DNA of 54,416 nucleotides, from assembly GCA_964511865.1 (NCBI GenBank), contig CAZEHW010000001.1:1-54416 (forward strand). The letters are read 5' to 3'. A program made the position numbers and the translations under genes. The notes under the pieces were generated by a model. That model did no database searches. It was given only the letters and a program-made list of their open reading frames with translations, and was not told the origin of the DNA. The stretch's first letter is position 1; each line of letters starts with the position of its first letter. Source of the DNA: an uncultured Hyphomicrobiales bacterium. GTDB taxonomy: Bacteria; Bacteroidota; Ignavibacteria; Kapaibacteriales; UBA2268. Positions 11,365 to 46,840 of this stretch are shown here, piece by piece.

Positions 11365-12006
11365 TTGAATATATTTATTGATATGCAGGAAAACAAGGTA
11401 ATAAATGCCGAACAGGCAATACTGGAAGCCGCTGAAAAGCTGTTTCTGGAGAAAGGTTTTGCTATGACATCCACTACTGAAATAGCAAAAGAAGCCGGAT
11501 GTAATCAATCAATGGTTCATTATTACTTTAGAACTAAAGATAAGCTGTTTGATGCAATTTTTGAAAAAAAAGCAAATTTGATTTTATCGTCAGTCATGAA
11601 AAACCGTGATAAAGAAATATCATTCAATGAAAAAATTAAAAGTATAGTCGAAGCACATTTTGATTTGCTTAGAGACAATCCAAAATTACCATTTCTGTTA
11701 TTTAACGAATTAACTACTAATCCGGAAAGATTAAAATTAATAGTTGAGAAAATACAAAATATAAAAGGAATGGTTTTGCCTCAATTCCAAAAAGAGCTTG
11801 ACGAAGAATTCAAAAAAGGCAATATTAGAAAAATAACTTTGATGGATTTTATTTTATTACTCATTTCATTGAATGTAATCCCTTTTATTGCAAAACCGAT
11901 TATTAAAGCAATAGCAGAAATGAGTGATGATGAATTTGAAGAATTAATTGAAATACGAAAAAAAGAAAATGTGAGAATTATTTTGAAAAGTTTGGAACCT
12001 TTTTGA
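11365..12006 (+). CDS. TetR/AcrR-family transcriptional regulator
   Basis: The segment GFAMTSTTEIAKEAGCNQSMVHYYFRTKDKLF is a TetR HTH. An ATG at 11383 is an alternative start. Confidence 0.85.
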   Translation: MNIFIDMQENKVINAEQAILEAAEKLFLEKGFAMTSTTEIAKEAGCNQSMVHYYFRTKDKLFDAIFEKKANLILSSVMKNRDKEISFNEKIKSIVEAHFDLLRDNPKLPFLLFNELTTNPERLKLIVEKIQNIKGMVLPQFQKELDEEFKKGNIRKITLMDFILLLISLNVIPFIAKPIIKAIAEMSDDEFEELIEIRKKENVRIILKSLEPF

Positions 12007-12052
12007 ATAGTTTAATAAGTTTGATAAGTTTAATAAGTTTATTGGATTAAAA

Positions 12053-13315
12053 ATGAAATGTATTTTAAAAATAATTATTTTTCTATTTGGGAGTAGCTTG
12101 GTCTTATATGCTCAGCTAACACTTGAAACCTGTCAGGAAAAAGCATTGGCGAATTATCCCTTAATTAAACAATTTGATTTAATAAAATTATCTGAAAGTT
12201 ACAATCTTTCAAATGCCGACAAAGCATATTTCCCGCAATTAGCTATTAGTGCAAAGGCAACTTATCAATCTGATGTTGTTGAAATTCCTGTTGACCTTCC
12301 GCTGTTTAAGTTCGATGTTCCTGCAAAAGACCAGTATCAGGTAGCCGCCGAAATCAGTCAGGTATTGTGGGATGGAGGTGGAATCAGTGCTCAAAAAAGT
12401 TTAATTCAATCATCATCAGATATTGAAAAACAAAAACTTGAAGTTGACTTATATTCTTTAAAAGACAGAATTAATCAGTTGTTTTTTGGTATCCTTCTAA
12501 TTAACGAGCATTCAAAAAGAATTGATGATTTACAAAAAGAATTGCAGACAAATCTTGAAAGGATTTCATCATTAAAAAACAATGGAGTAGCAACACAATC
12601 TGACATTGATGTCATTCAGGTCGAAATAATTAATACAAAACAAAAGCAAACTGAATTGATTGCAAATAAAAACGCTTTTTTAAAGATGCTTTCTATAATG
12701 ATAGGAGAAGAGATTTCAGAGAATACTGAATTAGAAAAACCTGAACTAAATTCTGATATGACATTTTCTGATAATAACATGAGACCGGAATTAATACTAT
12801 TTGAAACCCAGGGAAATTTGTTCTTGAATCAGTTGGATATTATTGATGCAGGAACTATGCCGAAAATTGGATTATTTTTCCAAGGCGGATATGGCAGACC
12901 CGGATTTAATATTTTAAAAAATGAATTCCAACTATTTTATATTGGAGGTATCCGGTTTTCATGGAATTTGAGTGCTTTTTATTCCAAAAGCAACAGCTAT
13001 GAACTAATAAAGACCAATCAGAATTCCGTGAATTTACAAAAAGAAACTTTTCTTTTCAATAATAATCTCAGGACAGAACAGCAAAAAATTGAAATTGAGA
13101 AACTGAAGAATTTAATTCAAAATGATGATGATATAATAAAACTAAGAACAAATATCAAAAAGACATCTGAAGCTAAAGTTGAAAACGGGACATTATCGGT
13201 TAGTGATTTGGTTAGGGATATAAACAATGAGAATTTTGTCAGATTGGACAAAGCAGTACACGAAATTCAATTGTTAATTGCAATTTATAATTATAAGTAT
13301 TTAGTTAATGAATAG
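12053..13315 (+). CDS. TolC-like outer-membrane efflux protein
   Basis: 420 aa with a signal peptide. Position, size and coiled repeat structure fit an OEP next to HlyD/ABC genes. Confidence 0.75.
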   Translation: MKCILKIIIFLFGSSLVLYAQLTLETCQEKALANYPLIKQFDLIKLSESYNLSNADKAYFPQLAISAKATYQSDVVEIPVDLPLFKFDVPAKDQYQVAAEISQVLWDGGGISAQKSLIQSSSDIEKQKLEVDLYSLKDRINQLFFGILLINEHSKRIDDLQKELQTNLERISSLKNNGVATQSDIDVIQVEIINTKQKQTELIANKNAFLKMLSIMIGEEISENTELEKPELNSDMTFSDNNMRPELILFETQGNLFLNQLDIIDAGTMPKIGLFFQGGYGRPGFNILKNEFQLFYIGGIRFSWNLSAFYSKSNSYELIKTNQNSVNLQKETFLFNNNLRTEQQKIEIEKLKNLIQNDDDIIKLRTNIKKTSEAKVENGTLSVSDLVRDINNENFVRLDKAVHEIQLLIAIYNYKYLVNE

Positions 13316-13578
13316 TAGTCGTTAGTCGACAGTCGACAGATGGAAGAGAGCAGACAGGAATTCTTAATTTTTAAGTTTTTATGTTAACTTTGAGATCTTT
13401 GTGTTAAAAATATTTTTTGAAACCCATTACACAGAGTTGCACAGAGAAATCACAGAGATACACAGAGAGAGAAATAGGAGAATGGAGAAAGGAAAAAGGA
13501 GAAGGGAAAAACGGATGACAGATAACCGAAAACGGATAACGAATTGAAAATTTATGTATAAATAATTTATAGAATAAA
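13313..13578 (+). repeat. Short-period repeat spacer (TAGTCGT/CAGTCGA, CACAGAG, GGAGAAG, CGGATAA words)
   Basis: The spacer starts on the TAG stop. The TAGTCGT TAGTCGA CAGTCGA.. block and the GGAGAAT GGAGAAA GGAAAAA GGAGAAG GGAAAAA CGGATGA CAGATAA CCGAAAA CGGATAA block (from 13477) sit in the same 7-nt register, 161 nt apart. Confidence 0.85.
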
Positions 13579-14478
13579 ATGAAGACTTTAAAAAACATCA
13601 CGGTTTTGATTAGTGCGATAATATTGTTTGCTTGCAGTAGCGACGATAAGGAATACGATGCTTCCGGTACATTCGAAGCTACAGAAATAATCGTATCCTC
13701 CGAAGCAAACGGTAAAATTTTAAGTCTGAATATTCAGGAAGGAAACAAAATCAAAGCAAATGAGATAGCAGGAGTTGTTGATTCCACACAACTATATCTT
13801 AAAAAACTTCAAATTCTTGCAAGTGTGAATGCTGTACAGAGCAGAAAACCTGATATTGACAAACAAATTGCAGTAATAGAGCAACAAATTGCAAGTGCTG
13901 AATATGAAAAGAAAAGAGTTGAAAGTCTGATTAAATCTAATGCCGTTCCGGCTAAACAACTTGATGATATAAATGCACAAATTTCGGTCATGGAAAAACA
14001 GCTTTCTGCATTGAAATCGAATTTGGATGTCAGTACAAGAGGAATCAATCAGGAAAGCAATGCAATCGAAGTACAGGTTGCACAACTTGATGACCAACTG
14101 AAAAAATGTGTTATAACCAGCCCAATTGACGGTACTGTTTTGGTTAAATATGCAGAGGCAGGTGAACTTGCAGTTATGGGAAAACCATTGTTCAAAATTG
14201 CCGATACTGACAATATGCTCCTTAGAGCATATATTGTTTCGAGTCAGTTATCGGATATTCAATTAGGACAGAAAGTAAAAGTTTTTGCTGATTATGGTGA
14301 GAATAAAATTAAAGAATATAAAGGCGATGTAATTTGGATTTCCAACAAGGCAGAGTTTACTCCAAAGACAATATTAACAAAAGACGAAAGAGCAAATTTG
14401 GTTTATGCAACAAAAATTGCAGTTAAAAATGACGGATACCTGAAGATAGGAATGTACGGAAAAATAAAAATTAAATGA
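13579..14478 (+). CDS. HlyD-family membrane fusion (periplasmic adaptor) protein
   Basis: 299 aa with lipobox LFACSS, a coiled-coil middle region and a beta-barrel C-terminus (YbhG-like). Confidence 0.8.
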   Translation: MKTLKNITVLISAIILFACSSDDKEYDASGTFEATEIIVSSEANGKILSLNIQEGNKIKANEIAGVVDSTQLYLKKLQILASVNAVQSRKPDIDKQIAVIEQQIASAEYEKKRVESLIKSNAVPAKQLDDINAQISVMEKQLSALKSNLDVSTRGINQESNAIEVQVAQLDDQLKKCVITSPIDGTVLVKYAEAGELAVMGKPLFKIADTDNMLLRAYIVSSQLSDIQLGQKVKVFADYGENKIKEYKGDVIWISNKAEFTPKTILTKDERANLVYATKIAVKNDGYLKIGMYGKIKIK

Positions 14479-14667
14479 AACAGTGAAACGGAGGAAGGGA
14501 AAAGGGAGAAGGGAAAAAGGAGAAGGGATTGAAAATAGTTTTAAACTTTGAGTTCTTTGTGAAAATTCTTTGTGTTAAGAATATTTGTAGAGAAGAATTA
14601 TTACACAGAGGATTTCCAATCCCATAGGGGTTGAATGTTTTTAGAAAAAAGAATTTTAAATTAAAAA
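14476..14667 (+). repeat. Short-period repeat spacer with a GA-heptad block and a CTTTGAGTTCTTTGTG motif
   Basis: AAATGAA ACAGTGA AACGGAG GAAGGGA AAAGGGA GAAGGGA AAAAGGA GAAGGGA begins on the TGA stop. Confidence 0.85.
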
Positions 14668-15573
14668 ATGATTTCTGTAAAAAATATCAGCAAAAAATAC
14701 GGCAAAGTTCAGGCACTGGACGATGTCAGTTTTGAAGTTGAAAAAGGAGAGATTTTCGGATTAATAGGTCCTGACGGTTCCGGCAAAACTACTCTGTTCA
14801 GAATTCTTACTACTTTGCTCCTGGCTGACACCGGAACGGCAATTGTTGATGGTCTGGATGTTGTTAAGGATTACAAGGCAATAAGGAAATGTATTGGTTA
14901 TATGCCCGGCAGATTCTCGCTTTATCAAGACCTGACAGTCAAAGAAAACCTCGAAGTTTTTGCTACATTATTTAATACAACAATAGAAGAAAACTATTAT
15001 TTAATTAAAGACATATATTCGCAGATAGAACCATTCAAAAACAGAAGGGCAGGAGCTTTGTCAGGCGGAATGAAGCAAAAGCTTGCATTGAGTTGTGCTT
15101 TGATTCATAAGCCGGTCGTTTTATTCTTGGATGAACCGACTACAGGTGTTGACCCTGTTTCGAGAAAAGAGCTTTGGGCTATGCTTAAAAAACTCAAGCT
15201 CGAAGGAATCAGTATTGTTGTTTCTACTGCTTATATGGATGAAGCAAGTTTGTGCGATAGAGTTGCACTTATGTCTCAGGGCAAATTTATGAAAGTTGAC
15301 TCTCCTAAAAATATAGTAAACCAATACAGCAAAATTATATGGGGAGCAAAAAGTAATAAAATGTCAAAACTTCTGACAGATTTAAGAAACAATCCTGACA
15401 TTGAAACAAGCTTTACATTTGGTGACTCACATCATATCACAATTGCAAATAATCAACTTAAAATTGATGTTCTGCAAGAATATCTGGAAAATTTGGGACA
15501 TAAAGATGTTTTTGTAAATCCTATTGCGGCAGGCATTGAGGATTGCTTTATGGAATTAGCGGAAGTTAGTTGA
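14668..15573 (+). CDS. ABC transporter ATP-binding protein (first half of a YbhF-like pair)
   Basis: Walker A GPDGSGKTT, signature LSGGMKQKLAL, Walker B LFLDEPTTGVD. Confidence 0.9.
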   Translation: MISVKNISKKYGKVQALDDVSFEVEKGEIFGLIGPDGSGKTTLFRILTTLLLADTGTAIVDGLDVVKDYKAIRKCIGYMPGRFSLYQDLTVKENLEVFATLFNTTIEENYYLIKDIYSQIEPFKNRRAGALSGGMKQKLALSCALIHKPVVLFLDEPTTGVDPVSRKELWAMLKKLKLEGISIVVSTAYMDEASLCDRVALMSQGKFMKVDSPKNIVNQYSKIIWGAKSNKMSKLLTDLRNNPDIETSFTFGDSHHITIANNQLKIDVLQEYLENLGHKDVFVNPIAAGIEDCFMELAEVS

Positions 15574-15704
15574 GAGTTTTGAGTTTTAAGTTTTAAGTTG
15601 AGAGTTGAGAGTTGGAGAAGGGAGAAGGGAAAATTTAAAATGTAAAATGTAGAATGTAAAATGTAAAATGTAGAATGTAGAATGTAAAATGTAGAATGTA
15701 ACAG
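15565..15704 (+). repeat. Phase-locked heptanucleotide array (19 units, four graded words)
   Basis: From 15572: GAGAGTT TTGAGTT TTAAGTT x2 GAGAGTT x2 GGAGAAG x2 GGAAAAT TTAAAAT, then GTAAAAT/GTAGAAT x8, then GTAACAG. There is no phase slip. Confidence 0.95.
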
Positions 15705-15811
15705 ATTGAAGTCAGGAAATAAACTTAGCTGAACTTAGCGAAAAACTTTGAGTACTTTGCGTTTAAATAATTAGTTATACAAAGGACATTAGAAAAATAG
15801 AATATAGAACA

Positions 15812-16549
15812 ATGAATGTAATTAAAGCAGATAAATTGACAAAAAGGTTCGGGAAATTCACGGCTGTGGATGGGATTTCTTTCGATGTCGAAGAAGGAGA
15901 GATATTCGGCTTTCTCGGTGCCAACGGAGCAGGAAAGACCACAGCTATGAGAATGCTCTGCGGTCTTAGCAAACCCACTTCAGGTAAAGGGACAGTTGCA
16001 GGATTCGATATTTATAAACAGTCCGAAAAAGTTAAAGCAAGTATTGGATACATGAGTCAGAAATTTTCTATGTACGAAGATTTGAAAGTCTGGGAAAACA
16101 TCAAATTATATGCCGGGATATATGGAATTCCCGGAAAGGAGATTAACACTAAAATTGATGAGCAATTGAAAAGATTAGGATTTGAAAGTCAGAGAGATAC
16201 TTTGGTAAAATCTTTGCCTTTAGGTTGGAAGCAAAAACTTGCATTTTCTGTTGCAATTGTTCATGACCCGAAAATTGTTTTTCTCGATGAACCAACCGGT
16301 GGAGTTGACCCTGCAAGCAGACGGCAGTTTTGGGAATTAATCTACCAGGCATCCGACAGAGGTATTACTGTTTTTGTAACTACTCACTATATGGATGAAG
16401 CTGAGTATTGCAATCGGGTTTCTATTATGGTGGACGGAAGAATTGAAGCGATGGACACACCGGGGAATCTGAAGAATAAGTATAATGCAAATAGTATGGA
16501 CGAGGTATTTCATAAATTAGCAAGAAAAGCAGTAAGGATAGGAGATTAA
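15812..16549 (+). CDS. ABC transporter ATP-binding protein (second half of a YbhF-like pair)
   Basis: Walker A GANGAGKTT, Walker B VFLDEPTGGVD, H-loop TTHYMDEAE. Confidence 0.9.
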   Translation: MNVIKADKLTKRFGKFTAVDGISFDVEEGEIFGFLGANGAGKTTAMRMLCGLSKPTSGKGTVAGFDIYKQSEKVKASIGYMSQKFSMYEDLKVWENIKLYAGIYGIPGKEINTKIDEQLKRLGFESQRDTLVKSLPLGWKQKLAFSVAIVHDPKIVFLDEPTGGVDPASRRQFWELIYQASDRGITVFVTTHYMDEAEYCNRVSIMVDGRIEAMDTPGNLKNKYNANSMDEVFHKLARKAVRIGD

Positions 16550-16550
16550 T

Positions 16551-17657: not shown

Positions 17658-17678
17658 TGAGTTTAATAATTTTAAAAA

Positions 17679-17755
17679 GTTATCCGTTTTCGGTTGTCGG
17701 TTATCCGTTTTCGCTGTTCATTATACATTATACATTTTACATTATACATTATTAA
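17679..17755 (+). repeat. Phase-locked heptanucleotide array (11 units)
   Basis: GTTATCC GTTTTCG GTTGTCG GTTATCC GTTTTCG CTGTTCA TTATACA TTATACA TTTTACA TTATACA TTATTAA. It ends 2 nt before the ATG at 17758. Confidence 0.95.
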
Positions 17756-17757
17756 TC

Positions 17758-25064: not shown

Positions 25065-25130
25065 TTAATTGTTAATGGTTAATTGTCAATTGTTAATGAA
25101 GATAGGAATAAGGGATTGAATTCTTAATTG
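25062..25130. repeat. Heptad array TAATTGT/TAATGGT/CAATTGT.. between convergent genes
   Basis: GAGTGAT TAATTGT TAATGGT TAATTGT CAATTGT TAATGAA GATAGGA ATAAGGG ATTGAAT TCTTAAT. The array spans both stop codons (25062-25064 on + and 25124-25126 on -). Confidence 0.9.
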
Positions 25131-26985: not shown

Positions 26986-27873
26986 ATGAAAAAGCACATA
27001 CAAATAGTCATCTCAGCAATTCTTTTCTTTTGCTTTTCATTTTTAACTTATGGACAAACTCCATTCTGGAAATTGGAAAAAGATTCTATGAATTTAGCAA
27101 TTCTTGAACTTGACTATCAAACTCACGAATTCATACAAGGGCATTTTTCAGTTCATAAACCTTGTGATGATTGTGACAAAGATAGCTTGCCATTCTTAAT
27201 AGACGACGTGATGAATGGTGATATAGGATACATAAAATTTCTATATTTTGAAAATAACGAACAAGTATTCCATGGAAGTGTTATTTTTTTGGGAACTGGA
27301 AAAATAAAATTTCCACCTTCATTTTTTCCAAAAGACTCTTTTAGATTTTCCACAGGAATTTGTTCGCCACCTCAATCTATCAAGTACTATAAAATTTTAT
27401 TTTACTCAATTGGTGATTATAGCGATTTTAATGGTAACATAGCATGGCAAGGAATTCAAAATTTGGAAATAATAAAAGATTTTGCAAAAAATCCATATAG
27501 AATTGGTATATATTTATATCCTCCTGCTGTTGGGCCTTTTGAACCTGAAAATGCTAGATGGATTATATTTGTATACCAAGGCAAATTAACTCCTAATAGT
27601 GTCGATGATGTTAATATGGGAATTACAAATATTTCTCCCAACCCCTTCTCAGAATCCACAACAATACAATATTATCTTAATGACCCTGCTTTTGTCAGTA
27701 TTAATATTTACAATTCTTTTGGGAATAAACAAATAAATTCAGTTAAAGAATTTCGTGACAGAGGAGAACAGGAATTTGTTTTTGACGGCATGAATTATCC
27801 GTCAGGATTGTATTTTTATACAATTCAAATTGGGGATAAGTTCGTTAGCGGAAAAATGGCTTTAATTAAATGA
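26986..27873 (+). CDS. Hypothetical secreted protein with T9SS C-terminal sorting domain
   Basis: Signal peptide present. The CTD is ISPNPFSESTTIQYYL..SGLYFYTIQIGDKFVSGKMALIK. Confidence 0.65.
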   Translation: MKKHIQIVISAILFFCFSFLTYGQTPFWKLEKDSMNLAILELDYQTHEFIQGHFSVHKPCDDCDKDSLPFLIDDVMNGDIGYIKFLYFENNEQVFHGSVIFLGTGKIKFPPSFFPKDSFRFSTGICSPPQSIKYYKILFYSIGDYSDFNGNIAWQGIQNLEIIKDFAKNPYRIGIYLYPPAVGPFEPENARWIIFVYQGKLTPNSVDDVNMGITNISPNPFSESTTIQYYLNDPAFVSINIYNSFGNKQINSVKEFRDRGEQEFVFDGMNYPSGLYFYTIQIGDKFVSGKMALIK

Positions 27874-27908
27874 AAAATGAATAGTGAATAGTGAATAGTG
27901 AATAATAG
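27868..27908 (+). repeat. Heptad array AAATGAA x2, TAGTGAA x3, TAATAGT
   Basis: The first unit contains the TGA stop of the preceding gene. Confidence 0.9.
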
Positions 27909-28271: not shown

Positions 28272-28382
28272 AGCTTTCCGTTTTCCGTTATCCGTTTTTT
28301 AGTTCTTTAGTTTTTTTGTTTTTTAGTTCTTCTGTCTTTCCGTCTTTTACCTAATAGTCTAATAGTCTAACAGCCTAAATCA
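28272..28382 (-). repeat. Short-period (8 then 7 nt) array filling the whole intra-operon spacer
   Basis: The minus strand reads TGA TTTAGGCTG TTAGACTA TTAGACTA TTAGGTAA AAGACGGA AAGACAGA AGAACTAA .. AAACGGA TAACGGA AAACGGA. It runs from the stop at 28380 to the ATG at 28271. Confidence 0.85.
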
Positions 28383-31013: not shown

Positions 31014-31107
31014 TATTAGCTGAAAAATTACAAAAAAATTGTTGTATCAGTTTATTCTACTGACCAAGTATAAAAATACTAAAATACAAAAATATATTCT
31101 TTTAGTC

Positions 31108-31300
31108 AATAATTGTTGATTGTTAATTGTTAATGGTAATGAAGAAGGGAGTTCAGCAGACGGCAGACGGCAGACAGTAAGAAGTGAGAAGGTATCCTTC
31201 CAAAAGCTCAGGATGACAAGGGAAAGCAGGAGGAAAGATGGGATGTTAGGTAGGTTTTTACCGAATTTATCCTTCGGCAAGCTCAGGATAGCGAGAAGTA
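31108..31300 (+). repeat. Composite repeat (TGTTAAT heptads, GCAGACG heptads, two CxAAGCTCAGGAT boxes flanking a GA-rich core)
   Basis: GCAGACG GCAGACG GCAGACA GTAAGAA GTGAGAA GGTATCC TTCCAAA AGCTCAG GATGACA AGGGAAA are in one register. The second box, CCTTCGGCAAGCTCAGGATAGC, is at 31270-31296. Confidence 0.85.
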
Positions 31301-34633: not shown

Positions 34634-34697
34634 GAAAGAGTTAGGAGTTACGAGTCTAAAGTTAAGAGTTATGAATTTGAGAGTAAGGTAGAAGAAA
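34626..34697 (+). repeat. Heptad array GTTAGGA GTTACGA GTCTAAA GTTAAGA GTTATGA ..
   Basis: It begins on the TAG stop of the response regulator. Confidence 0.85.
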
Positions 34698-36605: not shown

Positions 36606-36684
36606 TTCTCGCAAAGCACGCAAAGAATACAGAGTAACAGAGAAATAACTATTAACCATTAACAATTAACAATTGACCATTCAC
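36606..36684 (-). repeat. Heptad array overlapping the hutI 3' end
   Basis: The minus strand reads AATGGTC AATTGTT AATTGTT AATGGTT AATAGTT ATTTCTC TGTTACT CTGTATT CTTTGCG TGCTTTG CGAGAAA. The first four units encode the last hutI codons (..NGQLLIVNG*). Confidence 0.85.
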
Positions 36685-37911
36685 CCATGTTTCCTCGACA
36701 TGATTAATTCCGAAGTGATAGAATAAATCCGTATATGTATGTGTATCAAGAATAATGAAATTGGCAAGTTTACCGACTTCAAGACTGCCCATTTTATCAG
36801 ATTGGCATATAGCAGCGGCACCGTTTAATGTTGAGGCAGTGATTGCTTCTTCGGCACTCATGTTCATATTAATCACTGCAAGCGATAATATCGTTTGCAT
36901 GTTTTCAGTAAAGCAGGAACCGGGATTACAATCAGTTGACAAAGCTACGATACATCCGGTGTCAATTAATTTCCTTGCAGGAGCATAGGGCAATCTGATG
37001 AAATACGCTGTCCCAGGCAACAAAGTTGCAACTGTACCCGATTCCTTCAAAGCATTTATTCCTTCATCGGATACAAATAGCAAATGGTCGGCTGATACTG
37101 CTCCCAATTTGCACGCTAACTGAGTTGAACCGAAATCTGCAAGCTCATCGCAATGCACTTTCAATTTTAGTCCGTTGTCGAGACCGGCTCTCAAAACCTT
37201 TTCACCTTCTTCGAGTGTATAATATCCCTTATCAATAAAAGCATCGCAAAACTCAGCAAGATTTTCTTCCTTGACGGCAGGCAGCATTTCTTTGCAGATT
37301 AAATCAATATAAGCATTGTGATTGTTTCTGTATTCCGGTGGGAAATCGTGAGCACCCAGAAAAGTTGAACTAATATGAACAGGTAATTCGGATTTCAATT
37401 GCTTAATAGCTCGCAAAAGTTTCAATTCACTTTCAGTCGAAAGACCATATCCGCTTTTCATTTCGAATGCCGTTGTGCCATGTTTGATGGCATTTAGAGC
37501 AATTCGTTTGCCGGATACAACCAACTCTTCAATATTAGCTTCTCTTGTCCCTTTAACGGTTGTTAAAATACCACCTCCTTCTTCTGCAATTTGTTGATAG
37601 CTCACACCTCTCAAACGTCTTGCAAATTCATGTGAGCGGTTGCCTCCGAATACAATATGCGTATGCGAATCAACAAATCCCGGTAAAATGGTTTTACCTT
37701 TTGCATCAATGATTTTATTGGGTGTAAAAGTATTATTTGAAATCAGCGGTTTCAATTCATTGACAGTTCCCACCCATTTAATTTCCTTATCGAAAATCAT
37801 AGCTCCGTTTTTTATTTCGCCAATATCTGACATATCACTACCGGCTTTTTGTTTTTTTCCGTTAGCATTGACAGTTACCAATGAACTAATATTTGTGATT
37901 AATGTTGTCAT
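36652..37911 (-). CDS. hutI: Imidazolonepropionase
   Basis: 419 aa. PGFVDSHTHIVFGGNRSHEF..GVSYQQIAEEGGGI and HCDE..ADHL are amidohydrolase/HutI motifs. Confidence 0.9.
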   Translation of the reverse strand: MTTLITNISSLVTVNANGKKQKAGSDMSDIGEIKNGAMIFDKEIKWVGTVNELKPLISNNTFTPNKIIDAKGKTILPGFVDSHTHIVFGGNRSHEFARRLRGVSYQQIAEEGGGILTTVKGTREANIEELVVSGKRIALNAIKHGTTAFEMKSGYGLSTESELKLLRAIKQLKSELPVHISSTFLGAHDFPPEYRNNHNAYIDLICKEMLPAVKEENLAEFCDAFIDKGYYTLEEGEKVLRAGLDNGLKLKVHCDELADFGSTQLACKLGAVSADHLLFVSDEGINALKESGTVATLLPGTAYFIRLPYAPARKLIDTGCIVALSTDCNPGSCFTENMQTILSLAVINMNMSAEEAITASTLNGAAAICQSDKMGSLEVGKLANFIILDTHTYTDLFYHFGINHVEETWVNGQLLIVNG

Positions 37912-38019: not shown

Positions 38020-38125
38020 GAACACACCCAGTCCCTGCGGGACACCCCTCTCAAGAGGGGATTTATACTCACTTTTCATCCCCTTTTTGTTTTATCCCCT
38101 CTCGAGAGGGGCAGGGGTGTGTTCT
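38020..38125. repeat. Inverted pair of the GAACACACCC..CCCCTCTCGAGAGGGG module
   Basis: 38020-38064 reads GAACACACCCAGTCCCTGCGGGACACCCCTCTCAAGAGGGGAT. 38095-38125 reads TCCCCTCTCGAGAGGGGCAGGGGTGTGTTC in inverted orientation. A near-identical copy is at 1674-1716. Confidence 0.9.
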
Positions 38126-38294
38126 TCTATTTTCTAAAACCGGGGAGGTGTTAAAAAACATTTCCAAAAATTTGCGAACTCCCAATACTACAATGTCACA
38201 TAAACAGCAAAAACGTCTCAGCAATAATCGAATAAATTCGTTTTCTCCTGTTAACCTTTAAATGAACAAAGCTAATTCAAGCAAGGCATAGTTT

Positions 38295-38432
38295 AATCCC
38301 GCCGGGATATTTACCGTTTTTTATTTTCTGTACTACCATAATGTAATCCCTATCGGGATATTTTCTGTTTTTGTTTCACTTTTTCGCTGTTTCACGTTTC
38401 ACTGTTTCACGTTTCGTTGTTTCACATTTCAC
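38295..38432 (-). repeat. Hairpin words (AATCCCGCCGGGATATT, AATCCCTATCGGGATATT) plus a GTGAAAC short-period array
   Basis: The minus strand reads CGTGAAA TGTGAAA CAACGAAA CGTGAAA CAGTGAAA CGTGAAA CAGCGAAAAA GTGAAAC. It starts 13 nt after the cdsA stop. Confidence 0.85.
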
Positions 38433-38445
38433 GAAAAACTGACGA

Positions 38446-39342: not shown

Positions 39343-39426
39343 TTTATTTCCTAAAAATAATTCTAAAATATAATTTCAAAACTAATCTTTTTTTCTTATT
39401 TTCTCATAAAATTAAATGGATAATTT

Positions 39427-40203: not shown

Positions 40204-40206
40204 GTC

Positions 40207-40926: not shown

Positions 40927-41010
40927 ATAGTTTAGTCGGTAGTCGATAGTCGAAAGTTATTAGTCGTTAGTCGTCAGTCGTCCTTCGACAAGCTCAGGTT
41001 GACAGTCGTT
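40920..41010 (+). repeat. Heptad array running into a CGACAAGCTCAGG box in the same register
   Basis: GTTGAGT GAATAGT TTAGTCG GTAGTCG ATAGTCG AAAGTTA TTAGTCG TTAGTCG TCAGTCG TCCTTCG ACAAGCT CAGGTTG ACAGTCG. It starts on the TGA stop. Confidence 0.9.
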
Positions 41011-41011
41011 T

Positions 41012-41061
41012 AAAAAAAAAGAAGTGAAGAATCCCAATCGTATTTCTTCACTTCTTTTTTT
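41012..41061. terminator. Bidirectional rho-independent terminator
   Basis: A9-AGAAGTGAAGAA-(12 nt loop)-TTCTTCACTTCT-T6: a perfect 12-bp stem with an A-run on one side and a T-run on the other. It lies between convergent genes. Confidence 0.8.
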
Positions 41062-41122
41062 AGTTCTTTAGTTCTATGGTTCTATAGTCTTTCTGTATGC
41101 TGTCTGCAAAAATTCCTAATTA

Positions 41123-41791
41123 TTAAATCGTTCCTCCCGTACCTGAAGCATCAGCGATTCCTTCAACAACTCCTTTGATTAAACGTGAAGTCTCCTCACG
41201 TATAGCATCACCCATATGAGTCCTCTCAACAAGTTCGGTTATTCTTATTTTTGCTTCACGGATCTCTTCCTTTTCAAATAAATCTTCTAAAAGGCGCGAT
41301 ACCTGAACCAAGCTCAGCAATGCTGTATTCCTTTCGTCAGGATTTTCGTGCTTCAAAATAAATTTCTTAATCCTGCTCCTTAATTCTTCCTCAGGTTCTG
41401 GATTTATAGTTGGATATTTTGTTCTGGTTATTAACGATAAAACCTTGTAAGTTTCTTCTTTTAACACATTACTTCTTACAAGATGCTGTAATGTCTTTTC
41501 TTTTATTTTTTTTACTTTATCATTCAACTTTAACATCCAATATTTGGTATCTTTCTTCTTTCCGGAATCAACAATGATTTTTAATACTTCATCGAAAAAT
41601 TCATTACCCGTAGGTGTCGGGTCTTTGACTAATATCTTGCTGTCTTGATAATCAATCTTGTCGGCAAAATATAATTCAATTAAAATACCGCCGATAATTG
41701 AAAATGGCAATATACCCATAGCAGTAAAAAGTACTGTGCCTTTCTCATCCTTTAAGGCAATCAACATCAATTGTTCAGGTAATGTCAGCAT
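41123..41791 (-). CDS. GPP34/GOLPH3-family protein
   Basis: MLTLPEQLMLIALKDEKGTV is the characteristic family N-terminus. Length 222 aa. Confidence 0.65.
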   Translation of the reverse strand: MLTLPEQLMLIALKDEKGTVLFTAMGILPFSIIGGILIELYFADKIDYQDSKILVKDPTPTGNEFFDEVLKIIVDSGKKKDTKYWMLKLNDKVKKIKEKTLQHLVRSNVLKEETYKVLSLITRTKYPTINPEPEEELRSRIKKFILKHENPDERNTALLSLVQVSRLLEDLFEKEEIREAKIRITELVERTHMGDAIREETSRLIKGVVEGIADASGTGGTI

Positions 41792-42044
41792 ATATTTTCC
41801 TTTAGTTATTATTATTCAAGTTCTAATATCATCAAAATTTCTTTAAATTCCAAAATAAATATTATATTTAATAATTATTTTAAAAAATAAGTTAATAATT
41901 GGTTTATTATATTAGTTGCTCAAGTCCATAAATTATGTTATTTTTTCAACCATTAATATCACAATTTAAATAATTGTGGATTAAATAATTATTGATTTAT
42001 TATCAATATTTATAAATTGTGAACTGTTAACTAATGATTAATCA

Positions 42045-43085
42045 ATGAGTAACGACGATAGTAAAAGAACTTCTGCAATAACTTCTCCCGAACATTCTTC
42101 GGAAGATGAAATTGAATATACTCTAAGACCTAAGGTTTTTGAAGAATTCACAGGTCAAAGAAAAATTGTTGAGAATCTGAAAGTTTTTATTAGTGCCGCT
42201 AATAAAAGAAAAGAAGCTTTAGACCATGTCCTTTTGACAGGACCTCCCGGATTAGGAAAAACTACTCTTAGTTATATCATCGCAAAAGAGCTTGGCACTA
42301 ATATTAAAATTACATCGGGTCCTGTTCTTGAAAAGCCGGGAGATTTAGCCGGTATTCTCACAAATCTCGAAGAAAAAGATGTACTCTTTATTGATGAGAT
42401 ACATCGTCTTTCTGCAGTAGTCGAAGAGTATCTCTATTCAGCGATGGAAGAATTCCGACTTGATATTATGATTGATTCAGGTCCTTCTGCTCGGACAATT
42501 CAGCTTAATCTTCCAAAATTCACACTGATTGGTGCAACTACAAGAGCAGGTTTACTGACTGCCCCTCTCCGATCTCGATTCGGTGTAGTAAACAGGTTGG
42601 ATTACTATGATACACATGATTTGCAAACAGTAATCAAACGTTCTGCCTCAATTCTGCAAGTTCCAATTGACGAGCAGGGTTCTCACGAACTTGCTTCACG
42701 CTCAAGGGGAACACCAAGAATTGCAAACCGACTGCTTCGGAGAACAAGAGATTTTGCTGAAGTAAAAGGTGACGGAACCATTAATAAAATAATAGCCGCA
42801 ATGACTCTGACTGCTTTAGAAGTTGACGAATTCGGACTTGACGAAATGGATAAAAGAATCCTGCTGACAATAATGCAAAAATTCTCCGGTGGTCCTGTCG
42901 GTATTAATACAATCTCTGCTTCTATCAGTGAAGAGGCAGGTACAATCGAGGAAGTTTACGAGCCTTTTCTGATTCAGCAAGGATTTCTCCAGCGTACTCC
43001 CAGAGGCAGAATTGCTACGGAACTTGCATACAAGCATTTCAAAATAGAAAGAACATCTGTTGACAATGGCTTGTTCTCGTTATAG
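42045..43085 (+). CDS. ruvB: Holliday junction branch-migration helicase RuvB
   Basis: [49 protein letters not shown] and [13 protein letters not shown]. Confidence 0.97.
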
Positions 43086-43100
43086 ATTATAAAATTCTGA

Positions 43101-43364
43101 TTACTTCCACTTCTTTCTCAAACTCTTCAGGTACGGTTCAGATACTCCCAAATCGAATGCTGTTTGCTTAATCGTTTTTTCCGGATATTTCTTCATATAT
43201 TTCAGGACTAATGTGTCCAGATGCGATATCCCCGGTACATAAAAATTCAAACCGCTCAAATTTTTTAACATTATTTTTACCGTCTCCAAACCGCATACAT
43301 TGTACAAAATCTTCAGGTCTGCCGTCAGGTCATTTTCGCTCAACAAATCAAATACGTTTTCCAT
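43101..43364 (-). CDS. Mor-like small DNA-binding transcriptional activator
   Basis: 87 aa. ..LSGLNFYVPG.. and the C-terminal HTH-like TIKQTAFDLGVSEPYLKSLRKK resemble the Mu Mor family layout. Confidence 0.45.
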   Translation of the reverse strand: MENVFDLLSENDLTADLKILYNVCGLETVKIMLKNLSGLNFYVPGISHLDTLVLKYMKKYPEKTIKQTAFDLGVSEPYLKSLRKKWK

Positions 43365-43383
43365 ACATCACCATTTTCTTTCT

Positions 43384-43632
43384 TTAATATTCTCTGTTAA
43401 TATTACCGAATGTTGAAAAATAATCTTCAATTACAAATTTCAAATCCTCTATAAACCCACTATCCATGAGCTTCTTCATTGATATTAACTCGATTGTAGC
43501 TATCAATATATTCTTCAATCTTTCATATTTAATACTTTCTTTTACATTAATATCAATGATGACATTATTAATATCATTGATAATTTCTTCAACAACTTCA
43601 GTCTCCTTTTTCTCAATTTTCTTTGCTTTCAT
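43384..43632 (-). CDS. Hypothetical small acidic protein
   Basis: 82 aa. It is co-oriented with and directly upstream of the Mor-like gene. No recognisable motif. Confidence 0.4.
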   Translation of the reverse strand: MKAKKIEKKETEVVEEIINDINNVIIDINVKESIKYERLKNILIATIELISMKKLMDSGFIEDLKFVIEDYFSTFGNINREY

Positions 43633-43737
43633 TTTTTTACCTTTTATTAACTATTTTTTATTATTTTATAAATATCTGAAATATATGTTGTTTATTTCAT
43701 AATAATTTCTTAAATTTGAAATAATTACTAATATATA

Positions 43738-43775
43738 TTGTAATATTTACAACAAAAATATGTAATATTTACAAT
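43738..43775. promoter_or_regulatory. Two copies of the palindromic operator TTGTAA-N3-TTACAA
   Basis: TTGTAATATTTACAA is at 43738-43752 and TGTAATATTTACA at 43761-43773, with centres 22 bp apart. They lie in the divergent region, 25-60 nt upstream of the HTH gene. Confidence 0.6.
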
Positions 43776-43799
43776 ATATGCAAATATTTATTTAGTTTT

Positions 43800-44231
43800 A
43801 TGGGCGAACTTCAAAAAAAAATTGGTCAGCGGCTTCGGGAAATCCGTCTTTTATTCCTTGAAGGTGATAAAGTTTCGGCAAGGCAATTTGCAAATGCCTT
43901 AGGTGAGAAAAAGGATAGCATTACCAATTACGAAATGGGTAAGGCAGGAATTCCAAACCGGCTCTTGCTTAAACTTTACGAACGTGGCTTCAATCCTGTC
44001 TATATACTGACAGGAGAGGGTTCTGTGTTTGCTGATAACGAAAATGGACAGGTGGTGAAAGAAAAAATCCATTCTAAAAACAACAAAAAATCTAATATTC
44101 AAAACATCAGGGAAATTGACCTAACAAAACTCAGTCTGAACGAACTCGAAAGAAAAGTCATTCAATATCAGGTTGCCGCCGGTGATATCCAGAAAATCAT
44201 CGAAAAGAAAAAGAATCAGGAAATTGAATAA
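43800..44231 (+). CDS. XRE/cI-type HTH repressor-like protein carrying a VAAG motif
   Basis: IGQRLREIR..SARQFANALGEKKDSITNYEMGKAGIPN..YILTGEG is an HTH_XRE segment with a phage-repressor-like ending. The C-terminal tail contains IQYQVAAGDIQ (44172-44186). Confidence 0.8.
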   Translation: MGELQKKIGQRLREIRLLFLEGDKVSARQFANALGEKKDSITNYEMGKAGIPNRLLLKLYERGFNPVYILTGEGSVFADNENGQVVKEKIHSKNNKKSNIQNIREIDLTKLSLNELERKVIQYQVAAGDIQKIIEKKKNQEIE

Positions 44232-44239
44232 TATCTTTT

Positions 44240-44893
44240 ATGATTAAATCTGCTGTAAATAGCAATTATTCCAAATCAACGATAAATGAGCTTTATCATT
44301 TTGTCAAATCCGCATTAATAGAAGAACAGCTTGGATTAATGGACAACTCCGCAAAACTTTCCCTGTTATATGAAGAATTAAGCAATAGAGACCGGCTTGA
44401 TGTTTACAACGAAGCCGTCAGCTCGGCTATTCATCGGGCTGTAAGTCTTCAGGAACTGAAATCCGCTTCTTCGACAGTAAAATTAAGAGGTATATCCGGC
44501 GATTCACAATTTGAGTTAACAGAACTCTTAAGAAAAGCATTCATAAGAGATGAAGACGAAAAGAAAACTTCAAGTTCTTTGCAGTTGCTGGAATTGCTCA
44601 AAGTATTCGGTATGGATGAAAACTCATTTATTTGCGATGTAACGGGACAGTCCATGATTGATGCAAACATCTTTGAAGGTGATACTTTAATAGTTAACCC
44701 AAATAAAAAAGTACTCGAAGGTGATTATGTCGTTGTCAAATTTGATACAGATATATTCGTAAAAAGATTCGTAAGCAATAACGGGATTGAATATTTTGCA
44801 TCTGAAAACCCCGAATATCAGCCATTCCCGATTGACAACAAAACAGAATTCGAAATTTTAGGTGTAGTAAAATCAGTCATTCATAAATATTAG
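44240..44893 (+). CDS. S24 (LexA/UmuD/cI-type) serine peptidase domain protein without an HTH
   Basis: GQSM is present (Ser138, 44651-44653), as is FVKRF (Lys175, 44762-44764). The Ser-Lys spacing is 37 residues, as in LexA. The ~110-aa N-terminal region is unrecognised. Confidence 0.75.
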   Translation: MIKSAVNSNYSKSTINELYHFVKSALIEEQLGLMDNSAKLSLLYEELSNRDRLDVYNEAVSSAIHRAVSLQELKSASSTVKLRGISGDSQFELTELLRKAFIRDEDEKKTSSSLQLLELLKVFGMDENSFICDVTGQSMIDANIFEGDTLIVNPNKKVLEGDYVVVKFDTDIFVKRFVSNNGIEYFASENPEYQPFPIDNKTEFEILGVVKSVIHKY

Positions 44894-44973
44894 CTTCAGA
44901 ATTTATTATCGCTTTATTTCCTAAACATCCCCTGCCTAAAAAAGAGGATATAGGGGGTGCATAAATATACATT

Positions 44974-45126
44974 GCCACTATCTTCAGATAGTGGATAATG
45001 AATTACACTAGCCACGACTTTTAAGTCGTAAAAAAAGGAATACGCAACCCACTGGACTTTAGTCCAAAACATTTATGGCTAAAGCCAAAACCAAATTTTT
45101 AATCTATCCAATATCTAAAGATAGTG
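44974..45126. repeat. Array of five short perfect or near-perfect hairpins
   Basis: CCACTATCT-tc-AGATAGTGG (44974-44993); ACGACTT-tt-AAGTCGT (45013-45028); TGGACT-tt-AGTCCA (45052-45065); TGGCT-aa-AGCCA (45075-45086); CCAATATCT-aa-AGATAGTGG (45107-45126). Confidence 0.85.
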
Positions 45127-45438
45127 GCACAAAATATAAATTAGCAAAATCATTTAAATCAGCTTAATCAGTGGTTCAGACAGTGGAGTCTTTGCGTGAA
45201 ATAGTTTATTCCCTGCGGGAAAACACGGCTTTTAGATTCATTTTGTTACCATAATTCAATCCCTACAGTACAAATTATCAGCTAAATCATTTTATCAATG
45301 CTTCAGACATTTACTCTGCCTTCTCTACATCCTTTGCGAGAAATTCTTTCGCTTGACTATTTGCTGTTTAAAATAAATTACCGGCTTAAGTTACAAATCA
45401 TTATTTTTGTATAATAATTCAAAATAATATGATTATAT

Positions 45439-46731
45439 ATGAAAACAAAACTTTATATTACAATTTTTATTCTGCTCACCTTCTCGGGTGTTGGGCAGGT
45501 AAAATCACAGGAATCGTTACCCGACACCGTCTGGACAAAAAGGCTTAACGATATAAGTGAGATAGGCTGTGTTAAATTTTCACCTGATGGCAAAATAATA
45601 GCAGTTGGTACATATGGTTTTAATTGGGATAATGGTATTATATTTTTAATCGAAACTGAAACGGGTAATATAATTAGGGAGTTAAAAGGACATAGCAAAG
45701 AAATTATATCACTTGATTTTTCGTTGACAGGTGATACTTTATTATCAGCAGGAAAAGAAGTAATTCTTTGGGATGTTAATACAGGTGAAATAATTAAAAC
45801 GTACAGTGAATATTATTTCAAAGCAATATTTATGGAGGATGATAATAGAATTCTCAGCTTAAAATCACCTGAAGAAGCAAAAAAGTTAGTTATATTTGAT
45901 AAGAATACAGGGATGATAGAAAGAAGTCAAAATTTTTCAGAAATCCCTAATTTTATATATTCAACCGTTAGTAATAAACTAATTATTGAACAGACAATAT
46001 TTTTCCCAGGGGAAGGTAAGAATCAAAGTTTTCTTAAACTCTGGGACGCAAACACATTTGAAAAAATTGCAGATTTAGGCAATCATGATGACCAAATAAC
46101 CGATATGGCTTTTTCGCCGGATGGTAGTTTGTTGGCAACTTCAAGTTTTGACCAAACTGTTAAAATATGGGATATTGCAAATAAAAAGTTGCTTAAGAAT
46201 ATTGAACCTAATTATAGTTTTTTACGTTCCAATATTTTCTCAAATGATACAAATTATCTAATAATTGGTTTTTCTTATGTTGAGAATTGCGGAATATTTA
46301 TTTGGGATATCAAAAGTCAATCATTTGTAAAAGAAATAAAAAATGATTCATTTTGTTCGACAGGAATGGATATGTCCCCAAATGATAATAATAAGCTATT
46401 AATATATTCTGGAAGAAACCTACGGCTTATAAATCTTCAACTACAAACCATTGGCGTTGTTCAAACTTTTGAAAATATCAAGAGTATACTGTACCCCAAC
46501 CCCACAAACAATATAGCAAATATTCAATTTTATCTGGAAAATTCTGATAATATTGAAATTAAGTTGTATGATATTTCGAGTAATTTAATTGAAAAAATAT
46601 ACAACGGATTTTTGAATTCCGGTAATCAAACAATTCCTTATAATTGTTCAAATTTAAGTTCAGGAATCTATTACATTAAAATCTCGTCGCCAAACCTTAC
46701 TCTGACAATAAAGCTGGTAAAGGAGGGCTGA
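45439..46731 (+). CDS. WD40-repeat protein with T9SS C-terminal sorting domain
   Basis: WD-like blocks are present (GHSKEIISLDFS..LWDVNTGE; GNHDDQITDMAFSPDGSLLATSSFDQTVKIWD). The CTD is YPNPTNNIANIQFYL..SGIYYIKISS. Confidence 0.8.
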   Translation: MKTKLYITIFILLTFSGVGQVKSQESLPDTVWTKRLNDISEIGCVKFSPDGKIIAVGTYGFNWDNGIIFLIETETGNIIRELKGHSKEIISLDFSLTGDTLLSAGKEVILWDVNTGEIIKTYSEYYFKAIFMEDDNRILSLKSPEEAKKLVIFDKNTGMIERSQNFSEIPNFIYSTVSNKLIIEQTIFFPGEGKNQSFLKLWDANTFEKIADLGNHDDQITDMAFSPDGSLLATSSFDQTVKIWDIANKKLLKNIEPNYSFLRSNIFSNDTNYLIIGFSYVENCGIFIWDIKSQSFVKEIKNDSFCSTGMDMSPNDNNKLLIYSGRNLRLINLQLQTIGVVQTFENIKSILYPNPTNNIANIQFYLENSDNIEIKLYDISSNLIEKIYNGFLNSGNQTIPYNCSNLSSGIYYIKISSPNLTLTIKLVKEG

Positions 46732-46741
46732 CACATGAAGA

Positions 46742-46840
46742 AATTAGGAATTAGGAATTAGGAATTAGGAAATATAGAAACAACATGAAAACAACAAATA
46801 ATACATTGACCATTAACCATTAATAATTAACAATTATCAT
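46742..46840 (+). repeat. AGGAATT x4 heptads and TTGACCATTAACCATTAATAATTAACAATT words
   Basis: Starts 10 nt after the TGA stop of the WD40 gene. Confidence 0.85.

Follow-up and report, generated by a model that had tools for sequence, protein, structure and literature searches.

Why should short tandem arrays crowd against the stop codons of a bacterial genome? The question is raised by contig CAZEHW010000001.1, an NCBI metagenome-assembled genome (MAG) contig analysed here at its whole length of 54,416 bp (hereafter the window; G+C about 33%), in which the spacers behind many genes are occupied by head-to-tail copies of words that are mostly seven nucleotides long. The nearest named homologues of its proteins are found in Ignavibacteria, Kapabacteria and Bacteroidota, some of the proteins end in type IX secretion system (T9SS) sorting tails, and the gene names used below, which were given in a first reading of the sequence, agree with Pfam. 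That reading, the original prediction, held that the arrays are anchored on stop codons and that, as most words contain a stop triplet which a period of seven rotates through every reading frame, they may act as all-frame translational stop pads or as elements of 3'-untranslated regions (3'-UTRs), or may have been seeded by slippage of stop-proximal sequence. We find that the preference for stops is real and that the stop triplets are not its reason. With a probability of about 0.6, the arrays are heptameric long simple-sequence repeats (LSSRs), similar to short tandemly repeated repetitive (STRR) sequences, that have spread as modular cassettes and are kept where they do least harm, rather than purpose-built stop pads.

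Tandem Repeats Finder reports dozens of short-period arrays in the window, with 75–100% matches, and our own detector resolves 23 of period 7, three of period 8, two of period 5 and one each of periods 6, 9 and 12. Markov shuffles, which served as the null, yield 0.4 arrays of period 7; head-to-tail units of 5–11 nt are far above chance, as is expected of LSSRs. Equally in keeping with that class, 24 of the 27 arrays of period 7–9 detected lie outside genes, and the only clear case within a gene (53262–53315) consists of stop-free words and spans 54 nt, or 18 codons. Single words turn up again and again at unlinked loci (GGAGAAG at about six, TTAATTG, TAGTCG and CGGATAA/CCGTTTT at three each) and in either orientation, CGGATAA standing in sense at 13510 and in antisense at 17686. 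Comparisons draw on a sister MAG (GCA_043804925.1; loci L001, L127 and L128), 80–94% identical to the window in four compared proteins, in which ATGTAAA also occurs in both orientations (L001); on a relative at 86% (L125 and L126); and on array-poor relatives at 71–78% protein identity (L002, L003, L005 and, at 78%, L129), where period-7 arrays number 0–3 per 20 kb and the spacers are compact.

To compare stops with starts, we took the gene ends bordered by a spacer of 40 nt or more and counted a period 7–9 array within 30 nt as near. An array is nearby at 16 of 32 stops and at 5 of 38 starts in the window (odds ratio 6.6, Fisher p = 0.0014), and the sister MAG (52 kb) points in the same direction, with 6 of 33 stops and 1 of 33 starts. 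So does a cross-phylum set of 119 loci from many phyla, obtained from a one-word pattern scan with GGGARAAGGGARAAGGGARAA, for which all figures given here and below hold among the matches listed: in co-directional spacers 83 arrays lie nearer a stop and 46 nearer a start, and divergent spacers contain 1.0 array per kb against 1.8–2.0 per kb elsewhere. In these loci the sense strand is the G-rich one at a ratio of 37:10 for arrays within 25 nt of a stop and, reversed, of 6:19 for those within 25 nt of a start.

The 13 stop codons named in the original prediction were all found in place, and at each of them a period 7–9 array begins on the stop itself or no more than about 28 nt away; the claim of a non-random layout holds. 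What has to be given up is exclusivity: arrays also occupy the divergent spacers at 1604–1645 and 31072–31175, the leader downstream of a thiamine pyrophosphate (TPP) riboswitch, positions 3–5 nt ahead of start codons (7990, 17752 and 28275) and, in frame, the inside of a gene (53262–53315). We also rejected the rule that the stop is always in phase with the array, as the gene's own stop is an in-phase array triplet in only 5 of 20 cases. The arrays do lengthen the spacers of the efflux operon, as had been claimed. These measure 46, 263, 189, 238, 1 and 100 nt in the window, against 0–104 nt in orthologous operons at 77% and 71% HlyD identity (29, 18, 104, overlap, 0 and 96 nt in L002; 43, 32, 66, overlap, 64 and 81 nt in L005), and the spacer between the HAD phosphatase and GPP34-like genes is 196 nt in the window versus 71 nt in the 78% relative.

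Copy number differs between related genomes by whole units, which is a further mark of LSSRs. Relative to the window, L001 lacks exactly 28 nt (four units) in the GAGTTTT array block (15568–15630) and shows a second exact 28-nt indel in the ATGTARA array, the latter (15630–15701, plus strand; ATGTAAA/ATGTAGA) having 10 units in the window and 6 in L001. About 7 TAGTCGK units stand at the HAD phosphatase stop in the window, about 14 in the sister MAG (L128, where the downstream gene differs from that of the window) and none in the 78% relative (L129). Copies of GTGAAA(A)C at the HlyD stop number 1 in the window, 3 in L001 and 4 in L126, and AGTTTGTAA, a single copy past the stop of the second permease (18867) in the window, stands about four times in tandem in L001. 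Even the word itself can be exchanged: where the window has TAGTCGT behind the TolC-like gene's stop, L001 has TTAATTG, with the rest of the spacer about 90–95% identical. The C-termini of the proteins coincide with those of array-less orthologues, and therefore the arrays begin at the ancestral stop and the genes have not been truncated; a partial exception to these uneroded gene ends is the ABC ATPase, whose last codon or codons and stop form the first AGTTGAG unit (15568; AGT TGA G). The four-unit indels, the expansion of AGTTTGTAA in L001 and the five in-phase stops support in part the idea that slippage was seeded at stop-proximal sequence, but local seeding alone fails to explain why the same words, and the same word-plus-tail composites, recur at unlinked genes.

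The recurring units include more than words. A hairpin module, TCATCCTGAGCnnGTCGAAGGATGA, has four matches in the window against 0 expected, and arrays abut it; TTAATTG arrays share the tail GAAGAAGG..GATTGAA; and three long operon spacers repeat one module order. Two composites lie inside genes. In a fused MFS/spermidine-synthase gene, a composite at 53235–53315 (minus strand), made of a GGAAGAC/GGAGAAA/GGGAAAA array (53262–53315) and a degenerate CCTTCGACAAGCTCAGGATGAC module, encodes GRRKTGERRKEKGEGKRESIDKLRKT in frame, giving the low-complexity insert GRRKTGERRKEKGEGKRE..DKLRKT; it is present in the window and in the sister MAG (L127 8269–8330) and absent from seven more distant homologues. 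In a TMEM260-like gene the second composite spans 48253–48300: a hairpin module (48253–48277, minus strand), which reads TLRQAQDD, is followed by GCAGACA-type words, also in frame, the low-complexity insert being TLRQAQDDSKKQTAEGRR. The corresponding site of the sister MAG is occupied by an in-frame GCAGACA array (L127 16777–16803). Both composites are stop-free, as is expected if insertion is widespread and selection keeps only the harmless ones. Considered as miniature inverted-repeat transposable elements (MITEs) or repetitive extragenic palindromes (REPs), the elements have no definable terminal inverted repeats or target-site duplications, and neither a transposase nor a RAYT gene was seen; the hairpin module is dispersed, and the two in-gene composites, missing from distant homologues, provide both filled and empty sites.

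Do the stop triplets account for the position of the arrays? Most words do contain one, as claimed: TAA, TAG or TGA is present in 18 of the 25 stop-flanking words on the sense strand and in 12 of 25 on the antisense strand. However, a random circular heptamer at intergenic composition (A 0.365, T 0.366, G 0.135, C 0.134) carries a stop on a given strand with P = 0.54, and the sense-strand count is only marginally above the 13.8 expected when the letters of each word are permuted; counted as distinct word families, 15 of 19 have a stop against 12.0 expected (P = 0.049). The two strands differ because the sense strand is skewed towards G (G exceeds C in 19 of the 25 stop-flanking arrays, C exceeds G in 4, and 2 are ties) and stop codons contain no C. 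Moreover, the word list on which the claim was built was incomplete. It left out GGAGAAG/GGGAAAA, the commonest family with about six loci, as well as GTTTTCG, ACGGAAA, CACAGAG and GCAGACG, all of them stop-free on both strands, and CATTATA, which is stop-free on the sense strand only.

These stop-free words are placed no differently. In the cross-phylum loci, 40 arrays of the stop-free GGGARAA family lie nearer a stop and 19 nearer a start, with 23 of 59 within 25 nt of a stop, and the corresponding figures for other words are 43, 27 and 24 of 70. Arrays of the stop-free family keep at least as close to stops as the rest, and in the window, too, this family is just as stop-proximal; array position is therefore independent of stop content. 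The rotation of stops through the frames is correct, but it is plain arithmetic that applies to any triplet and to any period not divisible by 3. Nor did we find that arrays bring all-frame stops closer: the median distance past the stop until both other frames are stopped is 51 nt in 14 array-bearing genes, 71 nt in 29 other genes of the window and 46 nt in a set of 29 genes from the array-poor relatives (Mann-Whitney p = 0.13).

We propose that these arrays and a handful of small hairpin modules are recent colonists of the non-coding spacers in an uncultured bacterium of the Fibrobacteres–Chlorobi–Bacteroidetes (FCB) group. The arrays grow and shrink by whole units, through replication slippage or unequal recombination, as the unit changes among relatives show, and they draw on a small shared vocabulary of words; between loci, words may be copied as word-plus-tail cassettes, and arrays would persist only where the harm is small. 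With ancestral spacers of 18–100 nt in a compact genome, the harmless site would be the bases between a stop and the next initiation region or terminator, and arrays would abut, and sometimes absorb, stops because few unconstrained bases exist there. Survival would be less frequent in 5' leaders and, inside genes, restricted to stop-free words inserted in frame. The stop triplets would follow as a by-product, since any triplet of a unit whose length is not a multiple of 3 passes through three frames, and about one in two C-poor, A/T-rich words is expected to contain TAA, TAG or TGA by chance. An array overlapping a gene end would be tolerated only if translation ends at once, which may both filter and seed stop-containing words there. 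All-frame stops are incidental and work as a filter; they are not what the arrays are for.

That the arrays are all-frame stop pads, ending read-through or frameshifted translation at gene ends, is accordingly very improbable to us. The sense-strand stops of 18 of the 25 words, against 12 of 25 in antisense and slightly more than letter permutation predicts, and the five in-phase stops speak for it; yet the commonest family and six further words have no sense-strand stop, the stop-free family itself leans towards stops (40 versus 19), and the gap between the strands follows the G>C skew. Of what a pad should bring, stop enrichment beyond composition is marginal and all-frame stops are not reached sooner (51 versus 71 and 46 nt); 10–14 units are present where three would do; arrays also lie in divergent spacers, 5' leaders and genes; and relatives at 71–78% do without them. 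A function at the RNA level, as a protein platform, a determinant of stability or processing, a Rho-blocking operon spacer or, for GGGARAA, a G-quadruplex (G4), is better placed, although we still regard it as unlikely. The positional part of the original prediction stands here: at 40927–41122 each of two convergent genes has its own arrays, on either side of a separate bidirectional terminator hairpin (about 41012–41058), and the arrays there are therefore 3'-UTR sequence, not terminators. Such a function would suit the G>C bias of the sense strand in 19 of 25 arrays and in the stop-proximal arrays of other phyla (37:10), the unstructured stretches between stop and hairpin at 40927–41122, and the keeping of the word at the HAD and HlyD stops across relatives, and has a parallel in the Xanthomonas repeats, which are mostly transcribed and have transcript ends at G4-type repeats (PMC4692102). 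It sits badly with a copy number, and even a word, that changes at 80–94% identity, with few or no arrays at 71–78%, with the same words in both orientations (CGGATAA; ATGTAAA in L001) and with flanking genes that have no common function. Folded as RNA, the arrays show no structure (mean z = -0.1; minimum free energy 0 in 9 of 20), terminator-like sites are not enriched (12 found versus 10.0 expected; 14 versus 12.1), and we rejected a terminator role on both grounds. An Rfam 15 scan of the window has the TPP riboswitch as its sole match, with none on the arrays. G-quadruplexes were likewise rejected as a general explanation: the only canonical motif of the window (at least four G3 tracts with loops of 1–7 nt) lies at 1609–1632 (minus strand), within the 1604–1645 array. 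The remaining GGGARAA arrays have too few G3 tracts or loops that are too long, and the majority of words contain no G3 tract. A sponge for CsrA-type proteins, which bind GGA, was set aside after inspection by eye, GGA being present in only about a third of the words; to our knowledge, CsrA is not expected in this bacterial group.

Mobility offers another route to the same pattern, namely stop-codon-homing non-autonomous cassettes that use a heptamer array as an expandable arm, followed by an GAAGAAGGGATTGAA tail and a hairpin or terminator, and that would often supply their own stop and occasionally land in frame in genes. TTAATTG arrays in phase on TAA or TGA at three to four unrelated genes (25062, L001 9751, L127 7222 and 36652) argue for such homing, as do six copies of the 8-mer TGAATAGT on four stops, composite tails common to unlinked loci, array-plus-hairpin composites in two coding sequences and inverted array pairs in loci L007, L099 and L117 of the cross-phylum set. 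If true, a vocabulary (GGGARAA, TTAATTG, AATTAGG) common to distant phyla, including genomes of 58–64% G+C, would imply horizontal spread or a common heptamer-writing enzyme. We nonetheless hold it to be doubtful, and more so than an RNA-level role: no terminal inverted repeats, target-site duplications or transposase can be defined, the 7-mer TGAATAG is not over-represented (12 found versus 10.3 expected) and occurs at other locations too, tiny ancestral spacers would force tolerated insertions next to a stop in any case, and relatives differ by whole-unit indels, as slippage predicts. The 3'-UTR RNA role and the stop-homing cassette are the more interesting minority readings. To an assembly or sequencing artefact we give practically no weight. 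The contig belongs to a MAG and repeats can mis-assemble, but the arrays are shorter than a sequencing read, recur at orthologous sites in an independent MAG and independent assemblies (L001, L126, L127 and L128), and have counterparts of the same class in complete genomes (among them the chromosomes of Tepidiforma flava and Chryseobacterium sp. HR92, and Nostoc linckia NIES-25).

Our preferred explanation, of LSSRs that spread as cassettes and survive where they are harmless, has its own difficulties. Stop-containing words exceed a letter-permutation null (18 observed versus 13.8 expected, P = 0.013), and a similar tendency appears in other phyla for non-GGGARAA arrays near stops (23 observed versus 19.3 expected, P = 0.07). 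At some orthologous stops, those of the HAD phosphatase and HlyD, the word is kept though its copy number changes, and the G-rich, C-poor sense strand of 19 of the 25 arrays could be a sign that RNA-level selection, and not neutrality, is at work. We found no terminal repeats, target duplications or enzyme by which words might move. The lineage sample amounts to about 106 kb in all, and crude open reading frame (ORF) calls were used as genes in the cross-phylum loci, the bias of such calls running counter to the stop preference seen there.

At the left end of the window, the TPP riboswitch (Rfam RF00059, 67 bits; 1828–1951, minus strand) lies upstream of a minus-strand gene that starts near 1490. 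The gap of about 340 nt between aptamer and gene (1490–1828) contains a GGAAAAG/GGAGAAG array of six units (1604–1645, minus strand), two TCATCCTGAGC..GTCGAAGGATGA hairpin modules and a CCCCTCTCGAGAGGGG hairpin, and the expression platform is unusually long and repeat-laden. The array does not stand at a stop because it is in the leader between riboswitch and gene start; it is bracketed by two plus-strand copies of the hairpin module TCATCCTGAGCnnGTCGAAGGATGA (1579–1603 and 1648–1672). A dispersed element with an inverted partner, GTCATTCAGAGCGAAACGCAGTGGAGCGAAGAATCC, is found at 1480–1560 and again in L128 (7780–7850); we take it to be the type of repeat that gives spurious 'hypothetical protein' ORFs in many FCB-group MAGs. 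Further on, a GGAAAAG array of four units, stop-free on both strands (5009–5040, minus strand), begins 6 nt past the TAG of a minus-strand gene (5047–6642). A period-8 AACTTTAA array (7955–7990, plus strand), with one unit less in L001, is start-proximal, being 50 nt past a stop and 5 nt ahead of the start at 7996.

The efflux operon and the TetR gene carry the following arrays, all on the plus strand. A period-9 AGTTTAATA array of 3.7 units (12009–12041) fills the space from 2 nt past the TetR TGA (12004) to 11 nt ahead of the next start. Directly past the TAG of the TolC-like gene (13313) lies a TAGTCGT/CAGTCGA array (13316–13339), and the same spacer continues with a modular block (13390–13545), about 95% conserved with L001, that combines CTTTGAG..CTTTGTG, four CACAGAGnnn units (13428–13468), GGAGAAx (13471–13511) and CGGATAA-type words. 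Past the HlyD TGA (14476) a single GTGAAAC unit precedes a stop-free GGGAAAA/GGGAGAA array (14494–14528; whole element 14484–14528). At the ABC ATPase TGA (15571), AGTTGAG, GAGTTTT, AGTTGAG and GGAGAAG arrays follow one another (15568–15630) and run into the ATGTARA array. GTTTTCG/CGGTTAT words (17686–17713) and a CATTATA array (17719–17752) extend from 28 nt past the permease TAA (17655) to 5 nt ahead of the next start.

Several further features of these spacers deserve mention. In the sister MAG an additional WD40/T9SS-tail gene is present between HlyD and the first ABC ATPase (L001 10954–12255, corresponding to 14479–14667 of the window), with short arrays on either side; a similar gene stands elsewhere in the window (45439–46731). 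CTTTGAG/CTTTGTG units lie upstream of CACAGAG/CACAAAG units as imperfect inverted arrays that could pair, G-U pairs allowed, into long stems, in three consecutive efflux-operon spacers of the window (13390–13470, 14540–14615 and 15745–15765) and in L001 (18990–19130); by eye, no convincing match to Bacteroidetes-type promoter motifs was seen in the CTTTGAG..CTTTGTG modules. A second dispersed unit, CAATCCCATAGGGATTGAATGTTTGTAGAAAA, a hairpin with a T-rich tail that resembles a terminator, is single in the window (14617–14650, 38260–38360 and 45200–45290), whereas four tandem copies about 58 nt apart occupy the TetR–TolC spacer of the sister MAG (L001 8270–8470) and several are found in the 86% relative (L125 40–270). 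Finally, all six window copies of the 8-mer TGAATAGT (both strands counted; 2.65 expected) are on the sense strand at the stops of four genes, TetR (12004), the TolC-like gene (13309), the T9SS protein (27878–27899) and the HAD phosphatase (40924), which may stem from small numbers or mark a cassette junction that these sites share.

In the middle of the window, a TTAATTG array of 4.7 units (25065–25097, plus strand) begins at the base after the aldo-keto reductase TGA (25062) and is followed by the tail TTAATGAAGAtAGG..GGGATTGAAT, as are those at 31110 and L001 9754 and, in part, L127 7225. The TGA of the T9SS-tailed protein (27871) is an in-phase triplet of an AAATGAA/TAGTGAA array (27868–27906, plus strand), past which stands a small hairpin, TTAACTTTTCGAAAGTTAA. 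Three abutting arrays on the minus strand (28275–28378), in that sense ACTATTAG, TAAAAAAC and ACGGAAA, occupy the entire 108-nt spacer from the DUF2142 stop (28380) to the next start (28271), while AAAATACT, TTAATTG and GCAGACG arrays (31072–31175, plus strand) share a divergent start-to-start spacer with no stop codon near. A degenerate GAGTTAG-type array (34638–34690, plus strand) lies 4 nt past the response-regulator TAG (34631), a TTAATKG array (36646–36685, minus strand) overlaps the last codons and TAA of the amidohydrolase (hutI-like) gene, and a GTGAAAC(A) array of mixed period 7/8 (38372–38433, minus strand) begins 12 nt past the cdsA stop, with TAGTCGTCAGT directly on the stop.

Towards the right, in the convergent spacer at 40927–41122, a TAGTCGK/CAGTCGT array of about seven units (40932–40982, plus strand) starts 5 nt past the HAD phosphatase TGA (40924) and is abutted by a hairpin module, TCAACCTGAGCTTGTCGAAGGACGA (40978–41002, minus strand). 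The fold of the spacer places the terminator-like hairpin between the arrays of the two genes (41012–41058: A-run, GAAGTGAAGAA, loop, TTCTTCACTTC, T-run), and a period-8 GAACTAAA array (41059–41092, minus strand) lies 30 nt past the stop of the GPP34-like gene. From 10 nt past the WD40 protein stop, 4.3 perfect copies of AATTAGG (46742–46771) and 4.7 of CATTAAC (46804–46836) follow on the plus strand (46742–46836).

Arrays in inverted arrangement also flank conserved features in other genomes. In the 16S–23S spacer of the sister MAG (L127 2600–2800), tRNA-Ala (2640–2713) lies between reverse-complementary heptamer arrays, TTCTATA... and TAGAAGA..., with more TTTCTAT-type units ahead of tRNA-Ile; the paired arrays would make a long stem enclosing tRNA-Ala, like an RNase III processing stem. 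In other phyla, inverted pairs surround a conserved core or hairpin at L007 755–890 and 1774–1930, L099 20–135 and L117 5430–5560, the hosts including a 'Clostridiales' MAG of 64% G+C and a Planctomycetota MAG. Among them are (GGGAAAA)n..hairpin..(CCCTTTT)n, two AATTAGG arrays that form a pair, and pairs of the type AATTAAC/TTAATTG; some of them share the A/T-rich words of the window despite a high genomic G+C.

How do these arrays relate to systems already described? According to the account in PMC4679880, heptamers are the most abundant class of long simple-sequence repeat in prokaryotes and are attributed to slippage (Mrazek 2007, via PMC4679880). As far as that account goes, LSSRs (Mrazek, Guo and Shah 2007) and the arrays of the window have in common head-to-tail short units, an excess of heptamers, a mostly intergenic location, a sporadic occurrence across phyla and slippage, whereas the window has many words in one genome, joined with hairpin modules into composite spacers and recurring across loci. 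GGGAATC repeats of Xanthomonas and GGGGAYT repeats of Nostoc favour co-oriented spacers and avoid divergent ones, lie within 50 bp of a stop or overlap it, and have the G-rich strand as the coding strand; the Xanthomonas repeats are mostly transcribed, and transcript starts and ends at G4-type repeats exceed controls (Rehm et al. 2015, PMC4692102). This geometry, near stops, G-rich on the coding strand and rarer in divergent spacers, is reproduced in the window and in the cross-phylum loci, and the GGGARAA family is of the same G3N4 type; on the other hand, the exact words of those genomes are not tandem in the window, and most of its words, such as TTAATTG, ATGTAAA, TAGTCGT and AATTAGG, cannot form a G-quadruplex. 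Intergenic TAACTGA arrays are found in Beggiatoaceae, Cyanobacteria and some Bacteroidetes, where they place stops in three frames and hence overlap ORF ends only, and other heptamer repeats occupy spacers of Gramella, Aequorivita and Elizabethkingia, those of close relatives being shorter and repeat-free (MacGregor 2015, PMC4679880). The window differs from this system in having 11 single copies of TAACTGA and 0 in tandem, and in its arrays being mostly just past stops, while the repeats of the Guaymas Beggiatoa genome (BOGUAY) are mostly just ahead of starts (PMC4679880). Stop-proximity, sense-strand G-richness and all-frame stops are already reported, and both halves of the original observation have precedent (Rehm et al. 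2015; MacGregor 2015).

Other comparisons are looser. The window resembles STRR-bearing genomes in having several tandem heptamer families in non-coding DNA. The STRR words of heterocystous cyanobacteria, which we take to be CCCCAGT, TTGGTCA and CAACAGT, have 0 tandem pairs in the window, however, and belong to another phylum. Membership of the TAACTGA, STRR or GGGAATC families was rejected, since none of these words is present in tandem copies in the window. REPs, the bacterial interspersed mosaic elements (BIMEs) and Rickettsia palindromic elements (RPEs) are small dispersed palindromes of spacers, often past stops, with RPEs also in frame within genes. By description only, they resemble the hairpin modules and the composites at 48253 and 53235, not the arrays, which are not palindromic, and unlike REP/BIME systems the window has no RAYT-like gene. 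Contingency-locus simple-sequence repeats, which mediate phase variation in host-adapted pathogens, share slippage-driven changes in copy number, but their units of 1–5 nt (occasionally 7) lie in promoters and 5' coding regions and switch genes, whereas the units of the window are 7–9 nt long and mostly lie past the stops of housekeeping and transport genes.

The preference for heptamers and their clustering at 3' ends have been open questions since STRR sequences (1990) and LSSRs (2007) were described. To these the present case adds examples, not a new principle. The lineage is an unusually rich instance of multi-word heptamer arrays with a close sister genome, which therefore allows clean before-and-after comparisons of whole-unit indels, of word swaps at a fixed stop and of in-frame insertions into genes. 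In practical terms, the arrays inflate operon spacers and burden annotation with spurious extensions of ORFs and with odd peptide inserts of low complexity; they could also serve as markers for strain typing. For the biology of these repeats, the independence of stop-proximity from stop content removes one attractive functional story.

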